Assembly: GCA_023138975.1 (NCBI GenBank)
Contig: JAGLON010000032.1
Coordinates: 12,903 to 76,902 of the forward strand
Reading direction: 5' to 3'
Length of the DNA: 64,000 nucleotides
DNA from: Candidatus Zixiibacteriota bacterium
Lineage (GTDB): Bacteria > Zixibacteria > MSB-5A5 > GN15 > JAAZOE01
The translations under genes and the position numbers were made by a program. The notes under the pieces are model-generated. The model did not search any database. It worked only from the letters and a program-made list of their open reading frames with translations, and was not told where the DNA came from. Positions 13,762-54,697 of this stretch are shown one piece after another (positions within the stretch are counted from its first letter, which is position 1; each line of letters begins with the position of its first letter).

Positions 13762-13777
13762 TAACTGGTAAAGTATT

Positions 13778-13812
13778 AGCCGCGATTAATAAATCGCGGC
13801 TTCTCTGCTATT
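13778..13812 (+). terminator. Probable intrinsic terminator after the C25 peptidase gene
   Basis: Hairpin GCCGCGATT-AATAA-ATCGCGGC followed by a T-rich tract. Confidence 0.5.
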
Positions 13813-13917
13813 CTTTCTTTCAAGAAATCATTCTCACTATTTCCTCTTAAGTATTGCAATTCTCGTCAAATCTTATTTATTATAGGCTGGTTGTAGGAAG
13901 TAGAGGATTCTCGGTAT

Positions 13918-14658: not shown

Positions 14659-14752
14659 ATTCTTGTCTCTCACTGTTTAATTCTCTTGTGAATATCAGGA
14701 TAGTATCTATCTTAAGTCGGTTCTATAATGGCCTATTTACGTGGTGTTAATA

Positions 14753-15550: not shown

Positions 15551-15556
15551 CAAAGA

Positions 15557-28822: not shown

Positions 28823-28824
28823 AG

Positions 28825-34956: not shown

Positions 34957-35526
34957 ATGAGCGATTTGCATCAGGGAAATATTACTAACCTAATTGATAA
35001 ATGCAAGATGGGTGACGAGCAGGCTTGGTTTCAGCTTGTTGACCTTATTGCGCCGGTTATATTTTCCATTTGCAAACAGAATAGACTGTCGCGGGATGAG
35101 GGGTTTGATATTTACGGGCAGGTTTGCTACGAACTGGTCAACAATATCAATAAGCTCAAATCTCCTTCAAAAATACTCTATTTTGTCGCCACTATGACTC
35201 GCCGTAAGATATACAGCCTCTATAGAAAAATGCGCGTGAAGGATTATATCGATATTGATATATCTGAGCTGATTCCCGATGAAAAAAGTCCGAATCCTGA
35301 AAAGAACCTGGAAAGTCTACGCCGGAGGGAATGGCTGTTTGAGGCAATGATGAAACTTCCGGAAAAAGAATATCAGTTGTTACACCTTCTATTCTTTGAT
35401 AAAAACGAACCTTCTTACAAAGATATCGCAAAAAAGATGAAGATTCCAGTCTCATCTATTGGTCCAACGAGGGGAAAGGCATTAAATAGCCTAAAAAGAA
35501 TTATAAAATGGAAAAAGATAAAATAA
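34957..35526 (+). CDS. ECF-type (group 4) sigma-70 family RNA polymerase sigma factor
   Basis: 189 aa with only regions 2 and 4: AWFQLVDLIAPVIFSIC...YFVATMTRRKIYSLYRK, and LPEKEYQLLHLLFFDKNEPSYKDIAKKMKIPVSSIGPTRGKALNSLKR. Confidence 0.85.
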   Translation: MSDLHQGNITNLIDKCKMGDEQAWFQLVDLIAPVIFSICKQNRLSRDEGFDIYGQVCYELVNNINKLKSPSKILYFVATMTRRKIYSLYRKMRVKDYIDIDISELIPDEKSPNPEKNLESLRRREWLFEAMMKLPEKEYQLLHLLFFDKNEPSYKDIAKKMKIPVSSIGPTRGKALNSLKRIIKWKKIK

Positions 35527-35572
35527 TGGTATTATTTTATCTTTTTTGTGAGACTTAATCGTAGGTGAAATA

Positions 35573-36163
35573 ATGAGTAAGTCAGAAGAAGACATGAAGA
35601 AAATAGCCGTTTTTTTACATAGCCGGTACAATAATGTCGAATATGAGGAGATCTTGCAGATGATTTCCGGCGACGATGATTTGCGCCGAGTAATCAGGCA
35701 ATTGTCTGCCATTTATGATGAGAATTCCTCAATTGATTGGGAAAAGATAAAATCTCCCGCTCATGAGGTATTTAGAAACCTTCTTAAAGATATTAAAAGT
35801 GCCAAGTCTTCCAGGGATAACAACGTTGCCGTTAGAGTATTTGATTCGAGCTTGTTGCCGCTTCCTGAAGGAGTTAGACCGGCCGGAGTGGACACCCGGC
35901 GAATTAAGTATATTGTAAATGATCAGTTCGTTGAGTTATCTCTATATCCTGTATCTCCCGGTTCATATGAAGTAATCGGCCAAATCACAGGTACTTTTGC
36001 CAATGAGGGCTTTTCAGCCTATATGGAACACACTAATAAGAACTTTTCAGTAATTGTAAATGATTGCGGTGTATTTCGATTTCCCCGCGTTCCTGTAGGT
36101 AAATATTCTCTGACTATAACAAACGAAACCCAAACTATAGCTCGGGTAGAACTTGATCTATGA
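35573..36163 (+). CDS. Cytoplasmic protein of unknown function (candidate soluble anti-sigma/partner); C-terminal CarboxypepD_reg-like beta segment
   Basis: 196 aa with no TM segment, signal peptide or zinc anti-sigma motif. C-terminus reads GVFRFPRVPVGKYSLTITNE. Its stop overlaps the next start (ATGA). Confidence 0.5.
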   Translation: MSKSEEDMKKIAVFLHSRYNNVEYEEILQMISGDDDLRRVIRQLSAIYDENSSIDWEKIKSPAHEVFRNLLKDIKSAKSSRDNNVAVRVFDSSLLPLPEGVRPAGVDTRRIKYIVNDQFVELSLYPVSPGSYEVIGQITGTFANEGFSAYMEHTNKNFSVIVNDCGVFRFPRVPVGKYSLTITNETQTIARVELDL

Positions 36164-38916: not shown

Positions 38917-38936
38917 TACCGATTGAGGAAATAGCC

Positions 38937-40808
38937 ATGTACCATAATATTCGAAAAGTGGGAATTGTTATTATTGTGTGTGCTTATGTTTGTGGTAGCA
39001 TACTATCGGCACAGAATATTCCATTCAATAACTGTGGGATTTTGATCGGCGGACCGAATGAATGCGTCCTGTTTTTATCTATGGGCGGTATGCAGAATGT
39101 ATTTGTACTGGAAAATTATGGTGATTTTGTAATAGGTGACGAAGTGTGCGTTTCAGGTATGATTGATTACGGTTGTATATCTTCCTGCAGCGACTCTTTT
39201 CTATGCATAGTAGATAATGATATTGTCAGATTATCGGAAACAGATTTTCCTTATGGCGCTAATGGCGTGCTGGTAACTGCCGAATCTTGTGTGGTCTTTC
39301 AGTCCTTTTGGGACCCGGCCATGTCAATGACCCTTGAATATTATGGCAATTATGAGTCTGGTGATACCGTCTTTGTGATCGGGATGTTCAGCGATTCTTG
39401 TGAAGGAATCTGCCCGGACGCAGTTAGTTGTTTACAGAACAACACGATTGAAGGCATTGATCAACCGCCGATGCCGATGCAGGGAGCTGCGGTTCTTGAA
39501 CTGCAACCTGCAGTAAATCCGGAAGATGTCTTTTTTGATTTCAATTTAACAATGAGTGATAGTATCGATCAGCAGAATTTCTATCTAATACGGTTTGAAG
39601 ATAATTTGGAAATTGGAGATATAATAAGGCATCTGAGTCAGGATCCTCGGATAGTTTTTGCCGAACCGAATGTGGAATTTGGCCTCCCGGGAAATCTGCA
39701 GATGAGTATGTCTTTCCCCGATGAAAGCCGTCCACCATTGATTTTAGGCTCCAGTCCTCCGGGGTACTACCAGCAGGGCGCAACCTATACGATTGGAATT
39801 GATTCAGCCCAGAAGATTGCTAATGGGTTTGAGATAAAAATTGCGGTTATCGACAATGGTGTAGATTTTTCTCATCCGATGCTCTCAGAGATTCTAATCG
39901 AGGGTGGTTATGATTATCTGGATGATGATAATTATCCGGAGTATGAAGAAGGGACAGCAGCGAGTCATGGTACCTTTGTCACTGGGTTAATTGCGTTGAC
40001 AGCTCCAAAATGTAAAGTTTTACCAATACGCGCATTTGATGGAGACGGTATCGGGAACAGTTTTGCGATTGCAAAATCCATCTATCATGCCATTGATATG
40101 AATGTTGATGTTATCAATATGAGCTTCGGCATGAACGAGTATAATACTTTAGTTGAGATTGCCTGCAGCACGGCAATCGCTGCGGGAATAACTATTGTTG
40201 CCGCCGGAGGCAACGATGGGTCTATTTCGCCGGTATATCCAGCCGCATTTAATAATGTAATTGCCGTTTCGGCCGTGGATTCGAATGACGTTTTAGCGAC
40301 GTTTTCTAACTTTGGCAGCTATATTGATATTTGTGCCCCAGGAGTCAAATTGTACAGTTCTCTAGCTGGTGAGTATAATTGGGGGACCTGGAGCGGTACT
40401 TCCTTTGCCTCCGCCTTAGTTTCGGCGACCTGTGTATTAGCTCTTGATCTTGATAAGGATATGAGTGCGGCTGCGATGGAAAAACATATCCGAAATACAG
40501 CTGAGACTAAACTTATGAGCGGGAATATAACGCCGCATGATTTCACATATGGCTATGGTCGATTGAATACAGCTAATGCGGTTTGGTCGTTAAAGCCTGG
40601 TTCTGTAAACTGCGGTGATTGTAATGATGACAAAACTGTTAATCTTGCTGATGCGGTATATTTAGTCAGCTATATATTCCATAATGGTCCCCAGCCAGTT
40701 AATATGAGCATTGCAGATGCCAATTGCGATTCGGTAATAAACCTCGGCGACGCCATTTATATCATTAATTACGTGTTTAAATCCGGCGCCTCTCCCTGCT
40801 GTAATTAG
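38937..40808 (+). CDS. Secreted subtilisin-like S8 peptidase with two N-terminal Cys-rich modules and a C-terminal dockerin-like module
   Basis: ORF 38886 (TTG) trimmed to ATG 38937 (GAGGAA upstream; signal MYHNIRKVGIVIIVCAYVCGSILSA). Catalytic blocks IAVIDNGVD, HGTFVTG, GTSFASA. Dockerin-like tail at nt 40611-40805. Confidence 0.9.
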   Translation: MYHNIRKVGIVIIVCAYVCGSILSAQNIPFNNCGILIGGPNECVLFLSMGGMQNVFVLENYGDFVIGDEVCVSGMIDYGCISSCSDSFLCIVDNDIVRLSETDFPYGANGVLVTAESCVVFQSFWDPAMSMTLEYYGNYESGDTVFVIGMFSDSCEGICPDAVSCLQNNTIEGIDQPPMPMQGAAVLELQPAVNPEDVFFDFNLTMSDSIDQQNFYLIRFEDNLEIGDIIRHLSQDPRIVFAEPNVEFGLPGNLQMSMSFPDESRPPLILGSSPPGYYQQGATYTIGIDSAQKIANGFEIKIAVIDNGVDFSHPMLSEILIEGGYDYLDDDNYPEYEEGTAASHGTFVTGLIALTAPKCKVLPIRAFDGDGIGNSFAIAKSIYHAIDMNVDVINMSFGMNEYNTLVEIACSTAIAAGITIVAAGGNDGSISPVYPAAFNNVIAVSAVDSNDVLATFSNFGSYIDICAPGVKLYSSLAGEYNWGTWSGTSFASALVSATCVLALDLDKDMSAAAMEKHIRNTAETKLMSGNITPHDFTYGYGRLNTANAVWSLKPGSVNCGDCNDDKTVNLADAVYLVSYIFHNGPQPVNMSIADANCDSVINLGDAIYIINYVFKSGASPCCN

Positions 40809-41003
40809 GCATACATGTGACACCTGTCGAAACCGGTGAAGATGCAATAGTTTGTTTCACAAGTATTTAAGGCTATGGTGGTCACAGTAGAGTGGGGCAG
40901 TAGAAAAACGACCTCTTCTAATTGGAATTTCTTCATTATTAATCCCCATAAAAATTGAAAAAACAGCTATTTTTTTATCAATCTAAGCCCACTTAGAAAT
41001 AAC

Positions 41004-41018
41004 TGGCATATGGGTTGT
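41004..41018 (+). promoter_or_regulatory. Sigma54-like -24/-12 element
   Basis: TGGCAT-ATGGG-TTGT against the consensus TGGCAC-N5-TTGC. Located about 50 nt upstream of ATG 41069, with AGGAGGA in between. Confidence 0.35.
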
Positions 41019-41068
41019 GGTAATGAATGCCTTGAGATAAAAAATATATTACTGCATCAGGAGGATGT

Positions 41069-43294
41069 ATGAGAAAACTTACACTAACAATGTTCCTGTG
41101 TCTGGCATTTATCATGATGTCGGCAACTGCTTGGTCAGGCGAAGGGATTCCGGTTGATAAAAAACAAATGCTGGGAGATATTCTTCAGAGCGTATCATTT
41201 GAAAAACAAAGCCTTGAAGTTCCGTCAATGACCGGAGGCAATGGTACCGGATGTGTTGATGTTGATATTGAACTTCCAGATTCAATTATGGTTGAGAACT
41301 TTTTTGAGCCGGTTTTTGCTGAAGGCTATTTCGAAGTTATTAATTGTGGTGATGAGACTGGACAAGTAGAATTAAGTCTTTCGGCCGCCATTAATATTGC
41401 CGGCTTCATTGATACCACTATTTATCTTCCCGGTTTTCCGATTGTTCTCGGTGCCGGAGAAACACTATTCCAGGATTTAGTTTTTCCAGTACCACCATTT
41501 GCTGGTAGTTATACATTTTGTATATATGCGGTAACCGGTGATGTTGCCGATACTGCTTGTGCGACAATGATTGTAACGGTAGGCGATATGCCCGGTTTCC
41601 CGATTGACGTTTGTGGTATCCTTATGCAGGGCGAAAACTGCGTTTTGTTTGCTCCGGCCTGCAATGAAAGGGATATCTTTGTATTGTCGGATTATGGCGA
41701 ATTCCAGGTTGGCGATACAGTTAGAGTCGTTGGCGAAATGGATATGGACTGTCAAACCGAATGTGTCGGCGCAATGGGTTGTATAACGACGGAAACGATT
41801 GAATCCTGCGGCGGTTGGATGCCCGATATTCCTTTCGAAGACTGCGGTGTGTTGGTTCAAGGAACCGACTGTGTGCTCTTCTCTCCATTTATTCAGCAGC
41901 ATTATCCTGCGGACTCCACCGGCTTTGAAAGTCTATTAGTTGTCCTTGATGAGTATGGTACCTTTGTTGTCGGAGACACGGTCTTTGTTTCGGGCCAATT
42001 CCATCCAAATTGTGAAACGACATGCTCCGACGCAATGGGGTGCATTAAAGATAACGACATTGAAACTTGTGAAGGGGAAGATCCGGAATACCCATTTGGC
42101 GCGATTGGTATTCTTATCCAGGGAACCGATTGTGTTGTGTTTGTCCCCAAAGGGCATGACGGAGCGTTTGTCCTCGATAATTATGGGAATGCGGTCGTGG
42201 GCGATACCGTCTTTGTCGGAGGTATCCTTGATATTAATTGCGATACCGAATGTTCCGATGTTGATGGCTGTATCACAGACAATATTATAGAAATCGTTAA
42301 TAATCCCGGCGGCGGTAATGACTGGGATATACCGTTCTTTGCATTTGGTGTGATTATTCAGGGCGAGAATTGTGTCTTATTTGAAGAGGGAATGACCGGT
42401 GATCGTTTGCTTTTGGATAACTATGGCACATTTATAGTAGGCGATTCCGTCTGTGTCGAGGGTACCCTTGAACTTGATTGTGAGAGTGACTGCATCGATA
42501 TCATTGGCTGTGTCGAAGTTAATGAAATTATTGACTGCAGCAATAATCAGCCGGATTCGACTTATTATCAGGGTAGAGGAGTATTAACTCAGGCTACCGA
42601 CTGTGTGCTTTTCTGTGAAGCGCAGACAGGTGCTCTTCTATATCTTGACGATTTAGGAAACTTTGGTGACGGCGATACGGTCTGTGTTGATGGTATCCTT
42701 GATATGTCCTGCGAAACGAGCTGCAGTGATGCCCAAGGCTGTATCACCGTTAACCTTATCGTAAGTTGTGGATCTAATCCTCAGGATTATATTGAACTGC
42801 CGGGTGTCTTGGTACAGGTTGAAAACTGTCTCCTGTTCGCTCCGGGCGGAATGAATACCAATGGGTTTGTTCTTGATAACTATGGTGATTTTGTAGAAGG
42901 TGATGAAGTTTATGTGACTGGAATGGTTGATTTGGACTGTCAAACAGATTGTGTCGGTGCCTTCGGATGCATTAACGATAATACGATCGAAGCCTTAAAT
43001 CCGCCCGCGGTAAATATGGTTGATTTAAATGCTCATAACTATCCGAATCCGTTCAACCCGGCAACAACGATTTCGTTTGATCTTCCTTCGGCTATGACCG
43101 TGACGGTTAGCGTTCATAATATCCTGGGGCAGACTGTTTCTACTCTCATTGATGGTGAAACCCGTCAGGGACGGCAGAATATTCGCTGGGATGGAAATGA
43201 TTCGTATAACCAGAAAGTAGCCAGCGGTATTTACTTCTATCGGATTATTACAGATGACAAGGTTGTAACCAAGAAAATGGTTTTGACCAAATAA
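41069..43294 (+). CDS. Secreted protein with six tandem ~70-aa four-Cys modules and a T9SS C-terminal sorting domain
   Basis: 741 aa with signal peptide MRKLTLTMFLCLAFIMMSATAWS. Six repeats lie at about nt 41603-43010. The C-terminus NYPNPFNPATTISFDLP...SGIYFYRI...KKMVLTK is the Por/T9SS CTD pattern. Confidence 0.8.
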   Translation: MRKLTLTMFLCLAFIMMSATAWSGEGIPVDKKQMLGDILQSVSFEKQSLEVPSMTGGNGTGCVDVDIELPDSIMVENFFEPVFAEGYFEVINCGDETGQVELSLSAAINIAGFIDTTIYLPGFPIVLGAGETLFQDLVFPVPPFAGSYTFCIYAVTGDVADTACATMIVTVGDMPGFPIDVCGILMQGENCVLFAPACNERDIFVLSDYGEFQVGDTVRVVGEMDMDCQTECVGAMGCITTETIESCGGWMPDIPFEDCGVLVQGTDCVLFSPFIQQHYPADSTGFESLLVVLDEYGTFVVGDTVFVSGQFHPNCETTCSDAMGCIKDNDIETCEGEDPEYPFGAIGILIQGTDCVVFVPKGHDGAFVLDNYGNAVVGDTVFVGGILDINCDTECSDVDGCITDNIIEIVNNPGGGNDWDIPFFAFGVIIQGENCVLFEEGMTGDRLLLDNYGTFIVGDSVCVEGTLELDCESDCIDIIGCVEVNEIIDCSNNQPDSTYYQGRGVLTQATDCVLFCEAQTGALLYLDDLGNFGDGDTVCVDGILDMSCETSCSDAQGCITVNLIVSCGSNPQDYIELPGVLVQVENCLLFAPGGMNTNGFVLDNYGDFVEGDEVYVTGMVDLDCQTDCVGAFGCINDNTIEALNPPAVNMVDLNAHNYPNPFNPATTISFDLPSAMTVTVSVHNILGQTVSTLIDGETRQGRQNIRWDGNDSYNQKVASGIYFYRIITDDKVVTKKMVLTK

Positions 43295-43363
43295 GAAGAT
43301 ACCTCTCTTACTTAAGGGTGATGAATTGACTTCCCGACTTATCATCTAAAGTGAGTTGCATGA

Positions 43364-43402
43364 ATGGAGATGGGTGATTACACATCCATCTCCATATTTT
43401 AC
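43364..43402 (+). terminator. Probable terminator hairpin
   Basis: Perfect 10-bp stem ATGGAGATGG / CCATCTCCAT followed by ATTTTA. Confidence 0.45.
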
Positions 43403-43416
43403 TTACAGGTGTTGCC

Positions 43417-43554
43417 ATGAGAACCTTTTTCATTTTAATAATCTGTCTTCTTGCCGCCGGTTCAGCCTTCGGATATGATTATTTGGGAATATTGCCCGGA
43501 GAAAACGTTGGCGATCAATTTGGAAGCGCATTTTGTACAAACTCCACAAGCTAA
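43417..43554 (+). pseudogene. 45-codon ORF resembling the signal peptide plus first FG-GAP-like repeat of a larger secreted protein (possible gene remnant)
   Basis: MRTFFILIICLLAAGSAFGYDYLGILPGENVGDQFGSAFCTNSTS*. GDQFGSA is the FG-GAP-type core. The ORF is too short for the ORF track. Confidence 0.3.
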
Positions 43555-43591
43555 AAGCAGTCTTCCAGTCTGAAATATAAATAAATCATCG

Positions 43592-44224
43592 CTAGCGCGG
43601 TTGTTTTGTGTCCAGCGATATATGCTTTATATCAGACAAGCTTATTCGCTTATCATCTTTATCGTGGTCGTCATACACATACCATTGATCTTTGAAAACG
43701 AGCTTAGGCAAAATCAACGGCCGATAAGAAACCCTGCCTCCGTTTCCGTTGCCATTACTATTCTCATAGAATTTGATATGCACTTTAATCTTTAGCAGTA
43801 CCGCAGCCCAAATAAATATCTGAGTAATCGATTGAGGGTCGTTTAAATTCTCGGCACTACAGACAATGTCCCACAAGCTGGATAGCCCGGAGGGCAGGCG
43901 GGCTATGAGCTTATGAAGTAGAAGATTAACCGCTTCATGATATTCCCTGTTATTATCGTTTAATAGCTGACTCAAGCCGCCCAGTAAAAGTAGAATATCA
44001 TTCTCGGATAGATTTCGGAATGATGTGCTTTGTCTATGGAGAAGCCGATATGTCCTGGAAAAAGCGTCATAATATACTGGGATATTCGCTTGTGTCAGGG
44101 TCGAGATATATCGATATGCTGTTCTTGACGATATGTTACATTGCTTGACAATATCGCGAATTTTTAACTCACCCTTTTCATGCAGCATATAGGCGATATA
44201 AAGTATATTCTCGGTCTTGTTCAT
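43592..44224 (-). CDS. HTH (DeoR/YafY-like N-terminus) transcriptional regulator with a WYL-like C-terminal segment
   Basis: 210 aa. IRDIVKQCNISSRTAYRYISTLTQANIPVYYD forms the HTH. The C-terminus LVFKDQWYVYDDHDKDDKRISLSDI resembles the WYL core. Confidence 0.55.
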   Translation of the reverse strand: MNKTENILYIAYMLHEKGELKIRDIVKQCNISSRTAYRYISTLTQANIPVYYDAFSRTYRLLHRQSTSFRNLSENDILLLLGGLSQLLNDNNREYHEAVNLLLHKLIARLPSGLSSLWDIVCSAENLNDPQSITQIFIWAAVLLKIKVHIKFYENSNGNGNGGRVSYRPLILPKLVFKDQWYVYDDHDKDDKRISLSDIKHISLDTKQPR

Positions 44225-44241
44225 TCCGGTAATCCTTGGTT

Positions 44242-44478
44242 TTAATACAGAATCTCTACTATGGTAAGAACTACCTCTGTAACAAGGGGTAAAGGCTCTT
44301 CCATTGGTTCTGCACTTTGACTTCCACCGCCGCCACTGACAGTGTCAACAATTGTATCAAGGCCAGGATTGGGGGGGCCTCCTCCGCCATCAGCAATAAT
44401 CGTCTGGGGACTAAATGCGAAAAATACAAATGCTAAGCAAAGAAACGTAATGAATACATTGAAACTTCTGGAAAACAT
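44242..44478 (-). CDS. Small secreted Gly/Pro-rich protein
   Basis: 78 aa. AGGAGG RBS, signal peptide MFSRSFNVFITFLCLAFVFFAFSPQTIIA, then DGGGGPPNPG...SGGGGS and a hydrophobic tail. Confidence 0.45.
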   Translation of the reverse strand: MFSRSFNVFITFLCLAFVFFAFSPQTIIADGGGGPPNPGLDTIVDTVSGGGGSQSAEPMEEPLPLVTEVVLTIVEILY

Positions 44479-44516
44479 GTAAACCTCCTATTTTTTCAGT
44501 TTCCAAAAATATAGAA

Positions 44517-44532
44517 ATCAAATTTCATGCCG
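44517..44532 (-). promoter_or_regulatory. Sigma54-like -24/-12 element
   Basis: The minus strand reads CGGCAT-GAAAT-TTGAT. Located about 40 nt upstream of ATG 44478, with TAGGAGG in between. Confidence 0.3.
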
Positions 44533-44722
44533 AATCGAAGTGTTTAGCGCAAGCGCCTGTAAGGCTATGTGTTATGGCGGTAGTAATGAGTTTGGTATGG
44601 GGGTGGATTTACCGCTCACCATGCCGAATTGGTTATGTGATTAACGTAAATAACAATATTCTAATAAGTTATATGTACCGCGAAATGGTAAATTATCTGG
44701 TAATGTGGTAAAATCTTAAAAA

Positions 44723-47700
44723 TTAATTTCTTGTAATGCCATATTTTATTATTCGGCGTCTGAATGTTGATAGTGGCATCCCTATAGATTTCGATGCTTT
44801 TGATTGATTCCAATTATATTTTTGCAATGCCTCAATAATCATCGCTTTTTCTGTATCCGATGAAATTTTAACTGAATCCTTATCAGTTTTTTCGGTGTTA
44901 ACGATACTGGCATCCAAGTCCGCTCTCTTAATTAATCGCTGACCATGAAGAATACACAGCCGTTCAACAACATTTTTTACTTCTCGTACATTCCCCGGCC
45001 AAGAATATTGAAGCAGGCATTGTAAAGCGTTTTGAGAAATATTCAGATTCTTATCTTCACCCAGAAATACTCGAGCAAAATATTTGATTAATAAGGGGAT
45101 GTCGCCTCTGCGTTCTCGGAGCGGGCTAATTTCAATAATAATAGTGTTGATTCGATAGTAGAGATCTTCACGGAAATTATTATCATCGATAAGTTCTCTT
45201 AGATTCTTATTAGTAGCGAAGACTAATCGTACATCCGTAGAGATAGTATGGTTGCTTCCAACCATTTCAAATTTTTGTCCGTCTATTACACGGAGTACTT
45301 TGGCTTGATACTCAAGAGGCATATCGCCTATTTCGTCAAGAAGCAGAGTTCCGCCATCGGCTAATTGAAATTTTCCGATTCGTTTTTGCACTCCGGTGGC
45401 AACTCCTTTGTCAACTCCGAATAATTCAGATTCAAATAAACTGCTTTGAAGTGCCGCGCAGTTAATCTTGACCAATGTCTTATCGGATCGAAGACTATAA
45501 TCATGAATCATCTGACACAATATCTCTTTACCTGTTCCGCTTTCTCCCAAAATCAAGACGCTCGCGTTCGACCGGGCAATCTCCGGTAGCTTTTCGAAAA
45601 TCCTCAGCATAGGTTCATCTTTAGTGACAAATGATCTTTGTACTCCGACCGAAGATAAATCCTGGATTAATTGATCGTTGGTTACCTGTATGATATTAAA
45701 CTTCTGCGCCAAAGTTATCATTAGACCAATAAAATTGGTCAAGGCGGAAACAAATGAAATATCGGATTTCTCAAATAGGGCCGGTATTGTGTTGTGATCC
45801 AGATAAAGGACTCCGAGAACCTTTTGATTATATGAAATAGGGACGCACAGAACCGACAAAATATTATACATTATCACACTTTTGAAATGTTTAGTGCGCT
45901 CATCCTTTAAGGCATCTGTGACAATCAAAGGATCAAAATTAATAGTCGCCATTTCAGAGATGCTTTTGCTCAGCGCGGTTATATCATGCAGACTCTTATT
46001 ATCACAATTATAAAAAGCCTTAACGTGTAATGATTCTTTGTCATTGGAGTAGAGCAGCAATGCGCCTCGTTCGGCACCCGATTCATTGATAGCGAACCGT
46101 AATATCTTCAATACAGCATTGTGATAATCCGTCACATCAGATAAGATATCGGAGATTTTGTAAAAAACATCGATTCTTTCGTCGGTAACCGAATTACTCC
46201 TTTTAAGGTCATCCACTTCCTTTTTTAATTGCGTCATTAATGTTTTGTTAGAAAGCTGTTTTAGTAATTTTAGACTTTGTTCCAAATATTTCAGAGCCAG
46301 TCGATTTTGCTGTTTGTCTTTGTACCGGTTGGAAATCTTCCGGCAAACTATCGCGGCAATGAATATAAACCCCTTCTCGTTGAGCAATTGGTAGAGTATT
46401 TTTAATTCATCCAGATACTCATTATCTGATGAATCATTTTTGTAAAGATTATATATGACGTTTAATGATTTAAATATCGGGACCGACGATTTGGAAAATC
46501 CTTTTATCCTTGTCAGGACTTCATCTGGAATAATTCCGAATATTTCAAACTTTTTAGATAGAGCCAGGTGCAAAATTCCAAGAAAATACGAATAATAACA
46601 ATGGTGACTGTTAAGTGATTCCAGTATGTCCTGAAAATTATTCAGATCATACTCATCCTGATAATAAAAATTGCAAAAGGCTCTTAGTAATCTTAGTTCC
46701 TCCAATGAATTCACATTACCCATTTCTCTAAAAATGCTCTCAGCTCGATTAAAATACTCGGTGTATCTATACTTATTTCCTCTATAAAAGGCAATCTCAG
46801 CCAGTTTATGAAGCACTTCTCCACGAATCCTTTTTGCCCCTATTGAACTGACAATATTATTACATTCGTCATAAGTCTTTTCAGCGTTATCTAAATCACC
46901 GGTTATAAGATATAAATGGGCTTCCAATATCTTGTATAAACTAAGCTTAGAAATGGTCGTATTACAATAAGCGCGATACTCCTGCAGCCAGTATCTGGCC
47001 TTTGAGTAATTGCCCAAGCGGGCATTACTAAATGCTATTACATGGTAGAGAGAACTCAAACGGGAATCATCTTGTAAAGCAGCCGCTCGTTTTTTCGCGT
47101 TCTTGCACAATGATATTGCGGTTTTATACTGAGCCATCTCATTATAGATAGATGCAAGATTTATCATGGAGTTGACAGTATGAAACTTATCCTTTAACAA
47201 TTCACCGGCTTTAATCGCTTTTAGGTAGTTATCTCGAGGTTTTAATAAATTGCCGGTTAGCCAGTAATGAGCTCCAATATCATTGTAATAACCGACTTTC
47301 TCCTCAGCCGAAAGTTTGTCCTCATGCTGCTCAAGAATATCTTGCAGCCTTTTTAGCCCTTTGGTCTCACCCTGATATGTCCAGGTTCGTAATCGCTTGA
47401 GCGAAAACTCAAAATTGCTTCTGAATTTTAGCGCCGTGTCAATAATTTTACGGGCATCCTTAGTTTTACCGATAAGTAAACATTGTTTTATAAGGCATAG
47501 TATGAATTCACGCTGTAAATATATATTTTTTGGAGATATTCGAAGAGCTTCTTTACCAATATCAATTGCGTTTTGAGTCCTTCCATTTCCAGCCAGACTG
47601 AAACAAAGCCTCTGTAATACCTCCCCACGGGCTTCATTGTGACCTTTTAAGTGGGCTAATGATTGATTAGTATTGTATAGTAATAGCAGGTTTTTAAGTT

Positions 47701-48856
47701 TACCGCCGTTTCTTTGAAGCTTTTCCGAATTGTTATATATTGTCTTAAGATTGCTATAAGTTTCATCTGGTAGTGGTGATGAGTTTAGCGGCAGATGGCG
47801 ATGATTAATCCGCTTGTAAATATCAATCAGTACCTCCGGTGATGCGTCTATCTCCCAGTAATGGTCGTGGCGGTTTATGTTCGCATTATTGATAAGACTT
47901 TTTATCATCTGGAAGCAGGCTAAGCGATTGTCACTTAAATCAACCTCCAGATCCTGAAGTAGTTCCTCGGGAATTCCCACAATCCGCGAAGTATCTGTAA
48001 AGAACCGTGCCAGAGTTTCAGGTTCTTTTTGTAGTTTGCCGATATTTGATAAAAACTGAGAAAGCAATTGCGACGACAGTAACCTGCAGCTATAAACTTC
48101 AAAATTCTTTAGGGTAATTAGCTTACACCTCAATAATTCATCTAAAAGTACCATCGGTCGGTTTCGATGATTCTTCTGACAAAGAGAAGTGATCATCTTA
48201 TTAATCGCGGATGCTTTACCCTGTATTTTTGCCGACTGCATGAGAACTTTCAACATAATTCCTACAGAGTAATTATCAGATACCGCTGTAGCCGGACAAT
48301 CCTCGAATATTTCAGGAGCTATATGCATCGGAGTTCCTGATATTATTCCTTTTAAGGGGGTGTCCGCAGACCTGAGACTATCGAGATCAGTGAGGATTAT
48401 TTTACCTGATGTTCGATGTATAAGGAAATTTTCAAGCTTTATATCGCAATGAACTAAATTCAGAAAATGCAAATAGTCTATTATTGAGCAAATTTCATAA
48501 AATGACTCTGGAAAACGCTTGACAAAACTAGATGGCGTCAATACTTGCCAGTCTTTCGACTGTAAGTAAGGATACTCAATAATTGGTAAACGATTTACTC
48601 TCTGAATGGCCCTCGCGGTTAACACTAAACCGGATTTGATTGTTTTCTGAAGATGAAATGAGTTTACGAGAGCGTCCGCCAAAATGGATTCTTCAATAGA
48701 AGATTTTTGATTTGTAATTTTCAGAAAACAAGTTTTGCCATCCTTTTTACTTTCTGCTTCCCATGAAGTAGTAAAGTCATTTTCTGACAATAGTGTCTTC
48801 AACTTGTATCTGTCTCTCACAGAAGACATTAGTTTACTAGCCGGCTTTTTATTCAT
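44723..48856 (-). CDS. Multidomain regulator: Ser/Thr-kinase-like domain + TPR array + GAF + sigma54-interaction AAA+ domain + Fis-type HTH
   Basis: 1377 aa. Kinase blocks CFLKI (Lys), HCDIKLENF, LTDLDS, GTPMHIAPE, with no Gly-rich loop. AAA+ blocks GESGTGKE, ELFGVDKGVATGV (GAFTGA variant), GGTLLLDEIGDM, RLVFATN, FREDLYYRIN. C-terminal HTH NQSKASKSIGMPLSTFRRRI. Confidence 0.85.
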   Translation of the reverse strand: MNKKPASKLMSSVRDRYKLKTLLSENDFTTSWEAESKKDGKTCFLKITNQKSSIEESILADALVNSFHLQKTIKSGLVLTARAIQRVNRLPIIEYPYLQSKDWQVLTPSSFVKRFPESFYEICSIIDYLHFLNLVHCDIKLENFLIHRTSGKIILTDLDSLRSADTPLKGIISGTPMHIAPEIFEDCPATAVSDNYSVGIMLKVLMQSAKIQGKASAINKMITSLCQKNHRNRPMVLLDELLRCKLITLKNFEVYSCRLLSSQLLSQFLSNIGKLQKEPETLARFFTDTSRIVGIPEELLQDLEVDLSDNRLACFQMIKSLINNANINRHDHYWEIDASPEVLIDIYKRINHRHLPLNSSPLPDETYSNLKTIYNNSEKLQRNGGKLKNLLLLYNTNQSLAHLKGHNEARGEVLQRLCFSLAGNGRTQNAIDIGKEALRISPKNIYLQREFILCLIKQCLLIGKTKDARKIIDTALKFRSNFEFSLKRLRTWTYQGETKGLKRLQDILEQHEDKLSAEEKVGYYNDIGAHYWLTGNLLKPRDNYLKAIKAGELLKDKFHTVNSMINLASIYNEMAQYKTAISLCKNAKKRAAALQDDSRLSSLYHVIAFSNARLGNYSKARYWLQEYRAYCNTTISKLSLYKILEAHLYLITGDLDNAEKTYDECNNIVSSIGAKRIRGEVLHKLAEIAFYRGNKYRYTEYFNRAESIFREMGNVNSLEELRLLRAFCNFYYQDEYDLNNFQDILESLNSHHCYYSYFLGILHLALSKKFEIFGIIPDEVLTRIKGFSKSSVPIFKSLNVIYNLYKNDSSDNEYLDELKILYQLLNEKGFIFIAAIVCRKISNRYKDKQQNRLALKYLEQSLKLLKQLSNKTLMTQLKKEVDDLKRSNSVTDERIDVFYKISDILSDVTDYHNAVLKILRFAINESGAERGALLLYSNDKESLHVKAFYNCDNKSLHDITALSKSISEMATINFDPLIVTDALKDERTKHFKSVIMYNILSVLCVPISYNQKVLGVLYLDHNTIPALFEKSDISFVSALTNFIGLMITLAQKFNIIQVTNDQLIQDLSSVGVQRSFVTKDEPMLRIFEKLPEIARSNASVLILGESGTGKEILCQMIHDYSLRSDKTLVKINCAALQSSLFESELFGVDKGVATGVQKRIGKFQLADGGTLLLDEIGDMPLEYQAKVLRVIDGQKFEMVGSNHTISTDVRLVFATNKNLRELIDDNNFREDLYYRINTIIIEISPLRERRGDIPLLIKYFARVFLGEDKNLNISQNALQCLLQYSWPGNVREVKNVVERLCILHGQRLIKRADLDASIVNTEKTDKDSVKISSDTEKAMIIEALQKYNWNQSKASKSIGMPLSTFRRRIIKYGITRN

Positions 48857-49051
48857 AAATCAGATTCCTTTATAATAAGATAATAAATCGTTTCGACTAC
48901 GTAAATAGGTAAAATATATATTAGTAATATAGTACTGACAGAAATTGTCATAATGGGGAGAATAATGCTATTGCCGAAAGACGAACTATATCTTAACTTC
49001 AATATATCCAAGTTTTCTTTGTGTGAAAGCCTACAGCCAGGGGGTACTATT

Positions 49052-49966
49052 ATGAGTGAAGCTAGACTTCAAAGGCTAACAAAACGCATCAATGAGCTCG
49101 AAAGTATAGTCGCTGTTTTAACAGATTCGAAACAAGTGCTCGATGCTATTACCAATACGGCTGAAGATTCAATCTTTATAAAAGACATTCATTTTAGATA
49201 TACATTTATTAATCCGGCGATGGAGCGCACATTGGGTTTACCTGCATCTGAATTGATAGGAAAAACTCCCGAAGAGCTGTTTGGAAAAGAGGAAGCAAAG
49301 ATAATCGCATCTGTGGATAGGCCTGTTTTTAAGGGCAAAATTGTTAATGCAAAAAGGACGCTCAAGATCAACGGAATTGAGAGGGTGTTTCATACGGTAC
49401 AAACACCGGTCTTAGACTCGGATGGAAATGTAAAGGCTATCTGCGGTATTGTTCGGGATGTCACTGATCTAAAACGAACTGAAGAAGCCCTTAGGGAGAG
49501 TGAAGAAAAACTTCGATCCTACAATGAAGAATTGCGAGTTGAGAGGCAGGCGCTACATCAGAAAAACATTGCCCTCCAGGAAGTGCTCAGTCAAATCGAG
49601 TCAGGCAAGGAACAATTAGCGTCACAAATAAAATCTAATATTGATCGGGTCGTGATGCCGATAATTAAAGGCCTGGCCGATAAGTCGTCAAACGAGACAC
49701 TCGGTTATATTACACTATTAGAAAGTAGTCTAAAGGATGTTACATCCCCATTTATTAGTCACCTCGAATCTGATTATTCCTGCCTGACTTCACGCCAAAT
49801 AGAAATTTGCAACATGGTAAGAAGCGGGATGAGCTGTAAAGAGATTTCTACCTCATTAAACATTTCAGTTCAGACTGTCCTAAAGCAACGTACGCTTATT
49901 CGCAAAAACCTGGGAATATCCAATAAAAAAATAAATTTAGCGTCTTATTTACAGTCAATGAGCTAA
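49052..49966 (+). CDS. PAS domain + coiled coil + LuxR/GerE-type HTH regulator
   Basis: ORF 48953 trimmed to ATG 49052 (AGGGGG upstream). PAS region (ITNTAEDSIFIKD...FHTVQTPVLDSDGNVKAICGIVRDVT). LuxR HTH LTSRQIEICNMVRSGMSCKEISTSLNISVQTVLKQRTLIRKNLGI. Confidence 0.8.
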   Translation: MSEARLQRLTKRINELESIVAVLTDSKQVLDAITNTAEDSIFIKDIHFRYTFINPAMERTLGLPASELIGKTPEELFGKEEAKIIASVDRPVFKGKIVNAKRTLKINGIERVFHTVQTPVLDSDGNVKAICGIVRDVTDLKRTEEALRESEEKLRSYNEELRVERQALHQKNIALQEVLSQIESGKEQLASQIKSNIDRVVMPIIKGLADKSSNETLGYITLLESSLKDVTSPFISHLESDYSCLTSRQIEICNMVRSGMSCKEISTSLNISVQTVLKQRTLIRKNLGISNKKINLASYLQSMS

Positions 49967-49987: not shown

Positions 49988-50003
49988 TGGCCATTATTTT
50001 GCA
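49988..50003 (+). promoter_or_regulatory. Sigma54-like -24/-12 element (best match in the window)
   Basis: TGGCCA-TTATT-TTGCA, but about 400 nt upstream of ATG 50400. Confidence 0.35.
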
Positions 50004-50399
50004 ATAGTTTCTTGTTTCCGAGAGTCAAGCTATAGCTGTTAAGTTATTTAAGTCAGAGCCTGTTATCTTTATTTGGAGTAGTGGCTGATGCGAATCACAA
50101 TGTCTCATTAATAGCGCAGAAAACTATTGGCGCAAAAACCGAGTTTTTTAGTAAGAAACTTCTTTTAATTCTTGTAAAAGTAGACGTGTATACTTATCTT
50201 GTCGTATTGTAAAGAAGCATGCGGGCTTACAACTCAAAGCAAACTATACTGACGAATACCTCACGTCGTTCAGGTCATATTAAGTGGTTATAGGGACAAC
50301 TACATATTCAGTACCTCATTGCTCCATCGCCGAGTTAAATAAATTCGGATGAGTGGATTGCCGATAATCGCTCATAATCTCAACATTGGAGGCCCTTCC

Positions 50400-53300
50400 A
50401 TGAAAAAAGTGCTCACTATTCTGGCAGTCATTTGTTTTACCATTTTGATTGGCTCATTGCCTGCTTTGGCTGACTGGGATCCGGGGGACGGACACAAAAT
50501 GCACTTCCCTCAGCTTCCCAATGAAACAGGCTGGAATGTAAATGCTACATATCCGAGAACTTTAGCGGACGACTGGGAATGTTCAGAGAGCGGACCCGTA
50601 AATGAAATACATTTCTGGGGCTCCTGGCTTGGTGGAGAAGTCGGGACACTCCTAGGCTTTAATTTAGCCATTTACTCCGATGTTCCGGATCCTGACGGTC
50701 CTGGTCCCGAGTATAGCAGGCCGGGTGCAGAATTGTGGTCTCGACATTTCCCCATTGAAGAGGTGGTTGTTCGGCATATCATACCGGACCCCCAACTTTG
50801 GGAAGGGTGGTACGATCCTGAAACAGAAACTTATATCTATCCGGACCACGATAACTATTGGCAATACAATCTCTTTAATATCCCGGATCCTTTCGTCCAG
50901 ACTGTGGGAGACACCTTCTGGCTGGTCATTTCTGCAGTAGTTGAGGAAGAGGTCCCTGAGAAGTTATGGGGGTGGAAATCCGCACTCGATCACTGGAATG
51001 ATGATGGCGTCTGGTCAGCATCGGGACCTCCTTTTAATTGGGCGGAACTATACGAACCACCAGATTTCCTGGTCTCTATGGATCTGTCGTTTGTGATCAA
51101 CTATCAGGAAGGAGAGACTGGTGCCTGTTGCTTGAATGGAGGTGTAAACTGCATAGACACTAACCAAGTTGACTGCGTTGCCATAGGAGGGGTATTCCAG
51201 GGGGGCGGTTCAGTTTGTTTGGGTGACAATAACGGTAACGGTATTGATGATGCCTGTGAGAGTGGCTCAGATCCCGACGGCGATGGAATCGATGATGATG
51301 GCGACGGAAGCGGTATTCCCGGCGATAATCCTTGTACCGGCGGTAATACTGTTGGTTGCGATGACAATTGTCCCACCATGCCTAACCCCAATCAGGAGGA
51401 CGGGGACTCAGATGGTGTCGGTGATATTTGTGATAATTGTCCTGGCATGCCTAATCCACCTCAGATGAATACGGATACTGACAGTCATGGAGATGCTTGC
51501 GACAACTGTCCTGCCACGGACAATGAAGATCAGGCCAACTCGGACACTGATAGTTTCGGTGATGTTTGCGATAACTGTCCAACCGACGACAACCAGAATC
51601 AAGCTAATGCCGACTCAGATAGTCTCGGTAATGTTTGTGATAATTGTCCAACGGTAAGTAATGATAATCAAGCAAATTCTGATGCCGATAGTCATGGCGA
51701 TGTCTGCGACAACTGCATTAACGACGACAATGAAGATCAAGCGGATCTGGACGGTGACAGCGTTGGTGATGCGTGTGACTCGGACGACGATGGTGACGGT
51801 ATCAACGACGGCAGCGATAATTGTCCGATGGTTGCCAACCCGGCCCAGACGAATTCTGACGCTGATAGTCATGGTGATGCCTGTGATAACTGCATTAACG
51901 ATGACAACGAAGATCAGTCAGATATAGACTCTGATGGTATCGGCGATGTCTGTGATTCGGATGATGATGGTGACGGTATAAACGACGGTAGCGACAATTG
52001 TCCGACAGTTGCTAACCCAGCTCAGACGAACTCTGACGCTGACAGTCATGGTGATGCCTGTGATAACTGCGTTAACGATGACAATGAAGATCAGTCAGAC
52101 ATAGATGCTGATGGTATCGGCGATGTCTGTGATTCGGACGATGATGGTGATGGTGTCGGAGATGCCAGCGACAATTGTCCGACGGTTGCCAACTCGGCCC
52201 AGACGAACTCCGATACTGACAGTCACGGTGATGCCTGCGATAACTGCATTAACGATGACAACGAAGATCAATCGGATATTGACGGTGACGGAGCCGGTGA
52301 TGTCTGTGATTCGGACGATGATGGCGACGGTGTCGATGACACCAGCGATAATTGCCCGGGAGTTGCCAACGCCGCACAGACTAACTCCGATACTGACAGT
52401 CACGGTGATGCCTGCGATAACTGCATTAACGATGACAATGAAGATCAGGCGGATATTGATGACGACGGAATTGGTGATGTCTGTGATTCGGACGACGATG
52501 GTGACGGCATAGACGATACCAGCGATAACTGTCCCGATGTCTATAATCCGACTCAGACAAACTCTGATGCGGATAGCCACGGCGATGCCTGTGATAACTG
52601 TCCCAATGATACAAACGAGGACCAATCTGATCTGGATGCCGACGGAATTGGTGATGTTTGTGATTCGGACGACGATGGCGACGGTGTCGGCGATACCAGT
52701 GACAATTGTCCGACGGTTGCCAATCCCGCTCAGACGAACTCTGATGCTGACAGTCACGGTGATGCCTGTGATAACTGTCCCAATGATACTAACGAGGATC
52801 AATCTGATCTGGACGCTGACGGCGTAGGGGATGTCTGTGATTCTGACGCTGACGGCGACGGAGTAGATGACGCCAGCGATAACTGTCCCGGTGTTTATAA
52901 CCCAGATCAGGCCGATGCGGATAGTGACGGTACCGGCGATGCCTGTGATTCTGATATAGATGGCGATGGTCATAACAACGACAGTGATAATTGTCCTTAT
53001 GACGACAACGCGGATCAGGCTGATAATGACAGCGACGGTCAGGGCGATGTTTGTGATACAGACGATGATAACGATGGTGTCTTGGACGCCATTGACAATT
53101 GTCCGTTTGTCCATAACAGCGGTCAGCAAGACGCTGACAGCGATGATGATGGCGATGCCTGTGACACCGATGATGATAATGACGGTGTTCTTGACGATGG
53201 TGACAACAGTGGAACAGTCGGTGATGCACCATGTACCGGAGGACAGACGACTAATTGTGATGACAATTGCCAGTTTACGGATAACCCGAATCAAGAAGAT

Positions 53301-54425
53301 GCCAACAGTAATGGCGTTGGTGATGCTTGTGAAGGTGATTCCGATGGTGATGGTGTTGCTGATGGCATTGATAACTGCCCCGGGATTTATAATCCCGATC
53401 AAGCTGACGCGGATAGTGACGGTGTCGGCGACGCCTGTGATACCGATGATGACGATGATGGTGTCGACGATGCGGACGACAATTGTCCGAATATCTCTAA
53501 TCCAGGTCAGGAAGACAACGATAGCGATGGTGTAGGTGATGCTTGTGATCCTGACGACGACAATGATGGCGTCGCGGACGGCAGTGACAACTGTGCCTTT
53601 GTCTACAATCCGGGCCAGCTGGATGCCGATAGTGATGGCGTTGGCAATGCCTGCGATGCTGACGACGACGACGATGGAATCCTTGATGACGGCGATGGTA
53701 ATGGGGTTCCGGGTGATAACCCGTGCACCGGCGGGCAGACGACCAACTGTGACGACAACTGTCCGACTATCAGCAACCCGGACCAGGCCGATTCTGACGG
53801 CGATGGTGTCGGTGATGTCTGTCAGGGAGATTCTGACGGTGACGCTGTTGGCGACGATAGCGATAACTGTCCGGATGTTTACAATCCTGACCAGGCCGAT
53901 CGAGATAGTGATGGCGTTGGCGATGCGTGTGATCCTGATGATGACAATGATGCCGTACTCGATGGCACCGATAATTGTCCCTTTGTCTACAATCCCTCTC
54001 AGCTGGATACTGACAACGACGGCATTGGAAACGCCTGCGATTCCGATGACGATAATGACGGTATATATGATGACGGTGATGGCAGTGGAATGGCTGGTGA
54101 CAACCCGTGTTCGGGAGGCCAGACGACCAATTGTGATGACAATTGTCCGCTTACGCCCAATTCTAATCAAGCCGACGATGATGACAACGGTATCGGCAAT
54201 GTCTGCGAAGCTGATTTCCTTTGCGGTGATGCCAATGGCGATGGCCAGATAAACGTTGGTGATGCTGTATTTGTTATCAACTACGCCTTCAAGGGAGGGC
54301 CAGCCCCTGATCCGGTTGAAGCCGGTGACTCTAATTGTGATGACCAAACCAATGTTGGTGATGCGGTGTATATTATTAATTACGCCTTCAAAGGTGGTCC
54401 GGCTCCTTGTGCCAATTGTCCATAA
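50400..54425 (+). CDS. Secreted thrombospondin type-3 (Ca-binding) repeat protein with an N-terminal globular domain and a C-terminal dockerin-like module
   Basis: ORF 50349 trimmed to ATG 50400 (GGAGG 7 nt upstream; signal [24 protein letters not shown]). About 29 DxDxDGxGDxCDNCP-type repeats. Dockerin-like tail at nt 54222-54422. Confidence 0.85.
51687..52925 (+). repeat. Seven tandem copies of a 177-nt (59-aa) unit inside the TSP3 gene
   Basis: Unit starts (GA[TC]AG[TC]CA[TC]GG) fall at 51687, 51864, 52041, 52218, 52395, 52572 and 52749, exactly 177 nt apart. Confidence 0.85.
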
Positions 54426-54450
54426 TTCAATAAACTAACATCCACAATAA

Positions 54451-54478
54451 AAAGGCCGGTTTTTCACCGGCCTTTTTA
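54451..54478 (+). terminator. Intrinsic terminator after the TSP3 gene
   Basis: GGCCGGT-TTTTC-ACCGGCC followed by TTTTT. Confidence 0.75.
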
Positions 54479-54697
54479 TGTATACACTATAGGTGATGCT
54501 GTTATTACGGACCTCTTATTTATGGTAAGCAAGAGACAGGTATGCTAATGTGCTCTGTTTAACCCTGTAAAAATGCCAAAATTCAGTCTATGAAAGTGCA
54601 AATAACATCAAATTAACCCGTATCTCACTTCGTTTTAATTCTGTAGTAACAGTGCCATGCGGTAGTCACTTTGTATACAACGCTTCAACTCGGAGTA

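Follow-up and report, generated by a model that had tools for sequence, protein, structure and literature searches.

Can a transcription activator that lacks the GAFTGA motif still work through sigma54? The motif is regarded as the defining, invariant signature of sigma54 activators. The question is raised by a locus in a 64,000-nucleotide (nt) stretch of DNA from a Candidatus Zixiibacteriota bacterium (GenBank assembly GCA_023138975.1, contig JAGLON010000032.1, positions 12,903 to 76,902); it comes from a cold-seep metagenome and is called the window throughout. On its reverse strand, an open reading frame (ORF) at 44723-48856 encodes a 1377-aa protein, the megaprotein, in which a kinase-like module, TPR-like repeats, and a GAF domain precede the AAA+ and DNA-binding domains of bacterial enhancer-binding proteins (bEBPs, or EBPs). 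Its coordinates and length agree with those of an initial annotation of the window, which had pointed out GVATGV in the place of GAFTGA and asked whether the protein still acts through sigma54.

The answer leans towards yes on indirect evidence: a conserved enhancer-like region and a -24/-12-type promoter adjoin the gene in 39 of 43 loci. The most economical reading, to which we give a probability of about 0.6, is that the megaprotein would belong to a family of sigma54-dependent activators with a conserved non-GAFTGA contact loop, serving a cassette promoter with a non-canonical -12 element.

The megaprotein family and its contact loop

Pfam and structure alignments bear out the domain order first proposed for the megaprotein: kinase fold, TPR, GAF, sigma54-type AAA+, and Fis-type HTH. 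Pkinase matches residues 114-224 (55 bits), in the C-lobe only (profile 99-209 of 263); TPR_12 and other TPR models fall at about 412-760; and Sigma54_activat (PF00158) covers 1077-1241 (197 bits), followed by AAA_lid_14 at 1247-1328. GAF and a closing HTH_8 are also Pfam matches (Table 1). No transmembrane segment is evident in the 1377 residues, where the 19-residue hydropathy maximum is 1.57. No NCBIfam family scores above its curated cut-off: generic EBP equivalogs are the only matches, all sub-cut-off, led by NifA at 349 bits against a 529-bit cut-off.

The fusion of a kinase to an EBP had been thought rare, a view that metagenomes do not sustain. An exhaustive HMMER search with residues 1-1075, against representatives of 50%-identity clusters, returned 161 representatives with E<1e-30; nearly all have 1370-1420 aa, are colinear with the query, and share 24-37% identity with it. 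A word-indexed search found few relatives, two of them with GAATGV and SVATGV loops. Scanning one genome per GTDB species for a family-specific kinase motif gave about 50 loci, all in Candidatus Zixiibacteriota/GN15, in Ignavibacteriales, or in metagenome-assembled genomes (MAGs) labelled just 'bacterium'; other weak matches were unrelated kinases. The worry that the architecture might prove to be an already characterised family has receded: public names are automated domain labels only, no NCBIfam match exceeds its cut-off, and literature searches on Zixibacteria or Ignavibacterium with sigma-54 or rpoN, and on kinase-EBP fusions, turned up no account of it. Far from being a one-off or a decayed gene, the megaprotein belongs to a family that is sizeable and uncharacterised, a variant of the bEBP theme.

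The contact loop, L1, is where this family departs from the theme. In alignment with the structures of FleQ (235 bits over the AAA+ domain), NtrC1, and PspF, GAFTGAITSRAGRF stands against GVATG-VQKRIGKF: the Phe is replaced by Ala and the last Ala by Val, the loop is one residue shorter, and the remaining AAA+ domain is conserved. GVATGV was thus correctly read at the GAFTGA position, but it is no peculiarity of a single protein. In an alignment of 115 full-length members, on which all conservation counts given here are based, the Phe position holds Ala in 99, Phe in 8, Val in 6, and Tyr in 2. The Thr position is Thr in 107 and Ser in 8, the Gly is present in 94, and the last position is Val in 108. 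The family consensus is ESELFG[VI]xKx[VAT]-A-T-G-V, and nearly all members read xVATGV; GAFTGA at the tip of L1 is absent from the window protein and from the family at large. The ATPase is complete: Walker A (GxxGxGK), Walker B (DE), and the arginine finger R1235 are found in 115/115, and sensor II R1291 in 114/114. The conservation of the four L1 positions (A99, T107, G94, V108) therefore argues for purifying selection on a different loop and not for drift. Judged from these alignments, the motif departures are family traits and not signs of decay, and xVATGV appears to be a conserved functional replacement of GAFTGA rather than its loss.

The putative sensory regions differ in conservation. 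The TPR region is the most variable part of the family, and the GAF domain is highly conserved, with E929, S963, A982, S993, P1006, and Y1018 at 100% and R930 and D1020 at 99%.

The putative downstream promoter and the peptide cassette

In the window and in almost all related loci, the megaprotein gene is followed by a gap of about 250-270 nt, a small ORF, and a gene for a product of about 204 aa. The genes upstream of the megaprotein are not conserved across the related loci. Within the gap of the window lies a -24/-12-type element (Table 1), 190 nt past the megaprotein stop codon and 38 nt before the small-ORF ATG. Of 37 loci, 22 have the exact pattern GGCA[CT]-N5-TTG in the 110 nt upstream of the peptide ATG, mostly 42-57 nt from it. 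The background rate is 0.004 for each 110-nt window, and shuffles average 0.09 loci (maximum 3). Relaxed to YGGCAY-N5-TTG, the pattern has a match in 39 of the 43 loci, which lies +187 to +224 nt from the megaprotein stop. Its GG-N10-G spacing agrees exactly with the one in sigma54 promoters (TGGCAC-N5-TTGCW). The -12 base does not agree: across the 39 cassette promoters it is A in 17, T in 17, C in 5, and G in none, so that the canonical -12 GC is mostly missing.

The stretch of about 190 nt between stop codon and promoter is rich in TTGCCA(C)-type half-sites, with 62 observed against 11 +/- 3.5 (maximum 24) in shuffles. Those in forward orientation concentrate at -195 to -160, the inverted ones at -112 to -84. 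To judge by its sequence, this layout is the classical enhancer-plus-promoter of a bEBP target, in which the repeats near the -24/-12 element would be a putative upstream activating sequence (UAS) for the C-terminal HTH. Co-variation between half-sites and the HTH recognition helix, judged by eye, gave nothing clear. The exact sigma54 consensus TGGCAC-N5-TTGCW has 0 matches in the window, and allowing 2 mismatches yields 18 against 25.5 expected, with no window-wide enrichment. Neither a sigma70-type promoter above chance nor a terminator was found in 44150-44800, and Rfam has no match in 43500-49200.

The small ORF encodes a product with the marks of a secreted peptide. In the window it has a predicted signal peptide ending ..IIA/DG and a linker that is acidic and rich in Gly and Pro; its C-terminal helix is hydrophobic. 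Across loci the ORF has 66-99 aa in most cases, and its products have in common a predicted signal peptide ending in an AxA-like site, then D/E-G; an acidic Pro/Gly/Thr/Asp-rich linker, with a net charge of -3 to -12 in most loci; and a hydrophobic, often acid-punctuated C-terminal helix. They have no Pfam or NCBIfam match. The gene that follows encodes an HTH-WYL regulator: Pfam finds an HTH_11/PafC-type winged helix in 11 of 13 of the ~204-aa members, and the WYL domain, undetected by Pfam, is found by the PADLOC WYL model. The small ORF and the regulator gene are apparently co-transcribed.

Two side observations concern this region. A C-rich 'CCTCC'-like box, close to the predicted start of the transcript, lies about 6-12 nt downstream of the promoter TTG in a number of related loci (L012, L024, L032, and L046 are examples) and is absent in the window; since the box is complementary to the GGAGG Shine-Dalgarno sequence of the small ORF, translation may be controlled by a hairpin in the 5' UTR. 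Two complete Zixibacteria genomes have a -24/-12 site of the TTGA type (L013:8894 and L020:8824, both on the minus strand) before a divergent gene for a ~142-aa lipoprotein, about 1.1 kb upstream of the megaprotein gene.

In the favoured reading, the megaprotein would be a cytoplasmic one-component signal integrator, a lineage-specific bEBP of Zixibacteria and Ignavibacteriales. Its C-terminal HTH_8 would bind the TTGCCA-type repeats (TTACCA in the window) that start right past its own stop codon. The N-terminal sensors, namely the atypical kinase, the TPR, and the GAF domain, would release the AAA+ domain for assembly and ATP hydrolysis, and the AAA+ domain would remodel sigma54-RNA polymerase at the YGGCAY-N5-TTGW promoter about 200 nt downstream; the xVATGV loop would go with promoters in which GA or GT mostly takes the place of the -12 'GC'. 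The two-gene operon switched on in this manner would deliver the small secreted acidic peptide and the HTH-WYL regulator, which presumably passes the signal to further genes. The analysis itself establishes the architecture, the conservation across the family, the synteny, and the enriched promoter and repeat motifs; DNA binding by the megaprotein, sigma54 dependence, the signal, and kinase activity are steps that we infer.

The lineages themselves appear to use sigma54, because canonical GAFTGA EBPs (L010, L039, L040/L045) and canonical sites before other genes are found on the same contigs; among the latter are CGGCAC-gctca-TTGCA (L039:7059, adjoining a canonical EBP gene) and CGGCAC-acgat-TTGCT (L053:19930).

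Several points weigh against this reading. The cassette element is not a textbook sigma54 promoter, since the normally very conserved -12 C is present in only 5 of 39. An RpoN-box scan of the window and about 1 Mb of related loci, as distinct from whole genomes, found no rpoN, and no RNA runs were found that cover the window. In PspF, according to PMC2941729 (citing Zhang 2009), Tyr is the sole tolerated substitute for the GAFTGA Phe; on that precedent, a change from Phe to Ala should abolish sigma54 engagement. Likewise, p-benzoyl-phenylalanine (pBpa) at PspF F85 abolishes the interaction with sigma54 and spares ATPase activity (PMC3467059). The pointers to the megaprotein, rather than another EBP, as the protein acting at the promoter are adjacency and conserved synteny alone. 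Finally, kinase activity is doubtful, because the Gly-rich loop and the alphaC Glu are both missing.

The kinase module and competing readings

Alignment of the kinase module to solved kinases (phmmer; DCLK1, AKT, CaMK) spans both lobes, residues 9-206, and upholds the motifs first assigned: CFLK46I corresponds to VAIK, H136-C-D-I-K-L-E-N143 to the catalytic loop, D157-L-D to DFG, and A-P-E182 to APE. The missing Gly-rich ATP loop was not a mis-reading either, as S24-E-N-D-F-T occupies the GxGxxG position. To these we add a departure that had escaped notice: the alphaC Glu (DCLK1 'NEV') aligns with Ser66 (N-S66-F). AlphaFold2 predicts a confident bilobal fold (pLDDT 93.3, pTM 0.90), for which Foldseek returns CAMK-like kinases (DCLK1, CaMKII, DAPK1) and PknB at TM 0.6-0.72.

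These features recur across the family. K46 is present in 104/105 members, D138 in 114/114, K140 in 107/115, N143 in 112/115, D157 in 115/115, and the APE E182 in 110/115. Replacements are equally family-wide: the Gly-rich loop has become S-x-N (S24 in 76 and N26 in 76 of 115 rows, with 15 gaps), the alphaC Glu has become Ser, with S66/Q70 conserved on alphaC, and DFG has become DLD. Compared with a Hanks-type kinase, the module thus has the bilobal fold, the VAIK Lys, the HRD Asp, the catalytic Lys and Asn, the DFG Asp, and the APE Glu, and lacks throughout the family the GxGxxG loop and the alphaC Glu that pairs with the VAIK Lys.

Whether the module is a catalytically dead pseudokinase, serving as a scaffold or nucleotide sensor only, concerns the N-terminal module alone and is compatible with every reading of the rest of the protein. 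The initial annotation suggested as much, and we regard it as possible, if somewhat doubtful. The S-E-N sequence at the Gly-rich loop, Ser66, DLD, and a Pfam match restricted to the C-lobe speak for it. Nevertheless, K46, D138, K140, N143, D157, and E182 are near-invariant despite 24-37% overall identity, and the second acidic residue of DLD (Asp in 101, Glu in 14) looks like a conserved compensating feature. By the usual criterion, the loss of at least one of VAIK Lys, HRD Asp, and DFG Asp, this is not a pseudokinase, because all three are conserved; the suggestion is not well supported. On the alignments, the module is best described as atypical and under purifying selection, not a decayed relic, and as a presumed enzyme or at least a nucleotide-dependent module.

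A bolder form of the favoured reading, which we put forward tentatively and consider rather unlikely, holds that xVATGV would be a working sigma54-contact loop that has co-evolved with GA/GT -12 promoters, possibly by way of a sigma54 that is dedicated or altered (Region I), and that the cassette would perhaps be a peptide autoinduction circuit. Loop and promoter hint at such co-variation. Distant relatives with GAFTGA have canonical -12 elements before their peptide genes (TGGCAC-acata-TTGCT in L064, TGACAC-gcaat-TTGCT in L062), and within the family, members with an F or Y loop have a -12 base of C (L065, L029), T (L067, L033), or A (L066). A -12 C accompanies F/Y-type loops in 4 of 7 cases and non-aromatic loops in 4 of 35 (Fisher p=0.017, two outgroup loci included), and in the family alone the figures are 2 of 5 and 4 of 35 (Fisher p=0.15). 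This is a hint only, because the loci are not phylogenetically independent and significance needs the outgroups. In the autoinduction version, the secreted acidic peptide would be turned on by the activator, and feedback via the variable TPR sensor would come from this peptide or from its C-terminal helix after processing. A variable sensor adjoining a variable secreted peptide invites this model without establishing it. If the co-evolved loop is real, nature offers a system that can do without the 'invariant' Phe of GAFTGA; if autoinduction is real, RRNPP-like logic has been wired to sigma54 in bacteria of the Fibrobacteres–Chlorobi–Bacteroidetes (FCB) group.

The chief rival to sigma54-dependent activation is a regulator that does without sigma54: the altered L1 would make no sigma54 contact, binding to the TTGCCA repeats would activate a promoter of the sigma70/sigmaA type or repress it, and ATP would serve for oligomerisation only. 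Its case begins with the loop, since a change from Phe to Ala is expected to abolish sigma54 activation (PMC2941729) and the bEBPs known to lack GAFTGA work at promoters of the sigma70 type (bioRxiv 10.1101/2023.06.06.543975). Those sigma70-dependent bEBPs, however, deleted L1, which here is retained, one residue shorter, and strongly conserved; the sigma54-contacting Thr is kept (Thr in 107, Ser in 8), and the ATP-hydrolysis residues are all invariant. At the promoter, the canonical -12 C is absent in 34 of 39 cassettes, and TTGACA-N16-TAAACA can be read downstream in L019, L022, and L023. Against this, the element has exact sigma54 geometry, with a TGGCAC-like -24 and TTG at -14 to -12, at a fixed position in 39 of 43 loci, and no sigma70 consensus rises above chance in the intergenic region of the window. 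We judge a sigma54-independent regulator unlikely.

Still less credible, and in our view improbable, is that a real sigma54 promoter is served by another, canonical GAFTGA EBP, with the megaprotein as a brake, an anti-activator, or a partner in inactive mixed rings whose VATGV cannot engage sigma54. In its favour, some genomes have canonical EBP genes on the contigs that carry the cassette, and PspF F85 variants hydrolyse ATP without activating (PMC3467059 Table 1). Against it, no second EBP is conserved near the cassette, the repeats set in at the stop codon of the megaprotein itself and lie as far from the promoter as classical enhancers do, and a mere blocker would hardly account for the strict conservation of ATGV and the whole ATPase site.

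Taken as sigma54-dependent activators, these proteins matter in several ways. They make directly testable the assumption that GAFTGA is invariant and essential, and they offer a natural experiment on how the activator's loop fits with Region I of sigma54 and with the fork-junction element at -12. In two little-studied phyla that are un- or barely cultivated, they couple sigma54 transcription, as well as a small secreted peptide, directly to a sensor that resembles a Ser/Thr kinase. Motif-filtered surveys would miss them, because their loop differs from GAFTGA; a 2025 regulon survey drops EBP candidates without GAFTGA (PMC12316311).

Surroundings and comparison with known systems

Table 1. Features of the megaprotein locus, in window coordinates; residue numbers are those of the megaprotein.
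Feature	Coordinates	Strand	Basis
HTH-WYL regulator, 210 aa	43592..44224	-	HTH_11; PADLOC WYL E=6e-13, residues 3-193; near-universal in loci
Small ORF, 78 aa, with strong Shine-Dalgarno (aggagg)	44242..44478	-	sequence features, synteny
-24/-12-type promoter CGGCAT-gaaat-TTGAT; -12 dinucleotide GA, not GC	44517..44532	-	motif, family synteny
Inverted half-site CGGTAA, ~80 nt upstream of promoter, at family GTGGCAA position	44609..44614	-	by eye; uncounted by strict pattern
Three tandem TTACCA half-sites, putative enhancer (UAS), variant of family TTGCCA(C) repeats	44686..44711	-	repeat analysis; directly past stop codon
Megaprotein CDS, 1377 aa: kinase-like, helical linker, TPR, GAF, sigma54 AAA+, HTH_8	44723..48856	-	Pfam, NCBIfam
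Fis-type HTH_8 DNA-binding domain, aa 1334-1372	44741..44857	-	Pfam
Sigma54-type AAA+ domain and lid, aa 1077-1328	44873..45628	-	Pfam, structure alignment, family alignment
L1 loop G1151-V-A-T-G-V1156 at GAFTGA position	45389..45406	-	structure and family alignment
GAF domain, aa 914-1047	45716..46117	-	Pfam, family conservation
TPR-like solenoid, aa ~372-890	46187..47743	-	Pfam, family conservation, comparison with P0004
Atypical Hanks-type kinase domain, aa 12-262; K46, D138, K140, N143, D157, E182 conserved	48071..48823	-	alignments, AlphaFold2, Foldseek
D157-L-D159 at DFG position	48380..48388	-	family alignment
S24-E-N-D-F-T at Gly-rich loop position	48770..48787	-	kinase-structure and family alignment

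The neighbours of the cassette fit an anaerobe of the FCB group, because proteins with type IX secretion system (T9SS) tails and dockerins are present. A row of genes on the plus strand (34957-43294) starts with a 189-aa sigma factor of the extracytoplasmic function (ECF) type and an unknown protein of 196 aa; then come a TPR-CHAT protease of 918 aa, a 640-aa S8 subtilase that bears a dockerin, and a T9SS-tailed protein of 741 aa. The row has the look of a module for surface proteins or secreted proteases, equipped with a sigma factor of its own. The last gene of the row, a FlgD_ig/Por_Secre_tail gene at 41069-43294, converges on the downstream end of the cassette, so that the gap at 43294-43592 holds the ends of both genes. 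Another site of the -24/-12 type, TGGCAT-atggg-TTGTG, again with a non-canonical -12, is found 49 nt upstream of this gene (41004-41019, plus strand); from its sequence, it may be a further target of the same regulator.

On the other side, TGGCCA-ttatt-TTGCA, with a canonical -12, is found at 49988-50003 (plus strand), 22 nt past a PAS-LuxR gene and 346 nt before the gene for a 1358-aa TSP3-repeat/DUF7901 protein; the site is possibly a sigma54 promoter, possibly a coincidence. That giant thrombospondin type-3 repeat protein (14 TSP_3 stretches) and, next in order, a BNR/sortilin-like propeller with dockerin (682 aa) make up 50349-56719 on the plus strand, and dockerin- and TSP3-bearing surface proteins are unusual for a T9SS organism. 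Farther away, at 10081-17920 and 26796-34246, are genes for a gingipain-like C25 peptidase of 1226 aa and for a glycyl-radical enzyme together with its radical-SAM activase, as well as a complete operon for trp biosynthesis; this housekeeping context agrees with an anaerobic FCB-group bacterium.

A close comparison is with three larger proteins of kinase-STAND(AAA_16)-TPR-GAF-EBP architecture, themselves uncharacterised: P0003, P0004 (from a WOR-3 MAG), and P0005. P0004 is colinear with the window protein from the TPR region to the C-terminus, at 27% identity over 1075 columns. In these relatives, unlike the window family, the kinase is canonical (Gly-loop, DFG), and about 300 aa form a STAND NTPase module. 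P0004 and P0005 keep GAFTGA and TTGCT promoters, and P0003 shares the VATGV loop with the window family. Their loci are laid out like that of the window, with a sigma54-type promoter in front of a small peptide gene, about 250-300 nt downstream. Two of these loci have peculiarities of their own. At the P0003 locus (L004 15652-16377), the place of the HTH-WYL gene is taken by that of a free-standing Sigma54_activat-like protein of 241 aa, whose L1 region is degenerate, with no GAFTGA-like loop recognisable. At the P0005 locus (L064 4554-12459), an inserted DDE transposase splits off the kinase domain of the regulator; downstream, behind a perfect sigma54 promoter, are a 64-aa peptide without signal peptide and a radical-SAM/Fer4_12 enzyme, which look like the precursor and maturase of a ribosomally synthesised and post-translationally modified peptide (RiPP).

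Among characterised bEBPs, the GAF-containing NifA, NorR, and FhlA have the same GAF, sigma54 AAA+, and HTH_8 domains as the C-terminal 480 residues of the megaprotein. The megaprotein differs from them in 900 extra N-terminal residues (kinase, linker, and TPR), in its xVATGV L1, and in a target with a non-canonical -12. The GAF domain of NorR represses by targeting the GAFTGA surface (PMC2941729). By analogy, repression of this kind is a plausible model for the megaprotein.

Natural diversification of sigma54 systems has a precedent in Cereibacter sphaeroides, where the RpoN-cognate EBPs are not known to lack GAFTGA. According to PMC11999139 (citing Poggio 2006), RpoN1-4 of this species form dedicated triads of EBP, sigma54 paralogue, and promoter, with a base at -11, beside -12, that discriminates between promoters. 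Our proposal that loop, promoter, and possibly sigma54 may have co-evolved draws on this precedent. Other natural members of the EBP family lack a canonical sigma54-contact motif, as the megaprotein does: Rhodobacter capsulatus NtrC, Caulobacter NtrC, NtrX, VpsR, and TyrR. In these proteins L1, or at least 8 of its residues, is deleted, whereas the L1 of the megaprotein is one residue shorter and carries conserved substitutions. The promoter adjacent to the megaprotein gene has sigma54 geometry, unlike the sigma70 targets of the GAFTGA-less bEBPs, and the megaprotein falls outside that class.

For the sensory half of the protein, two further systems offer analogies. PknK/MalT-like kinase-STAND-TPR regulators couple a cytoplasmic kinase and a TPR sensor to transcription. 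In RRNPP systems, a TPR receptor gene stands directly beside the gene of a small secreted peptide, which recalls the cassette as an analogy and not as membership. The output of the megaprotein is a sigma54 AAA+ domain and not the LuxR or HTH of these systems, and the host phyla differ. Set beside RRNPP receptors, the cassette has no sequence relationship to them; it has a conserved adjacent gene for a secreted peptide, and both its TPR region and its peptide are highly variable.

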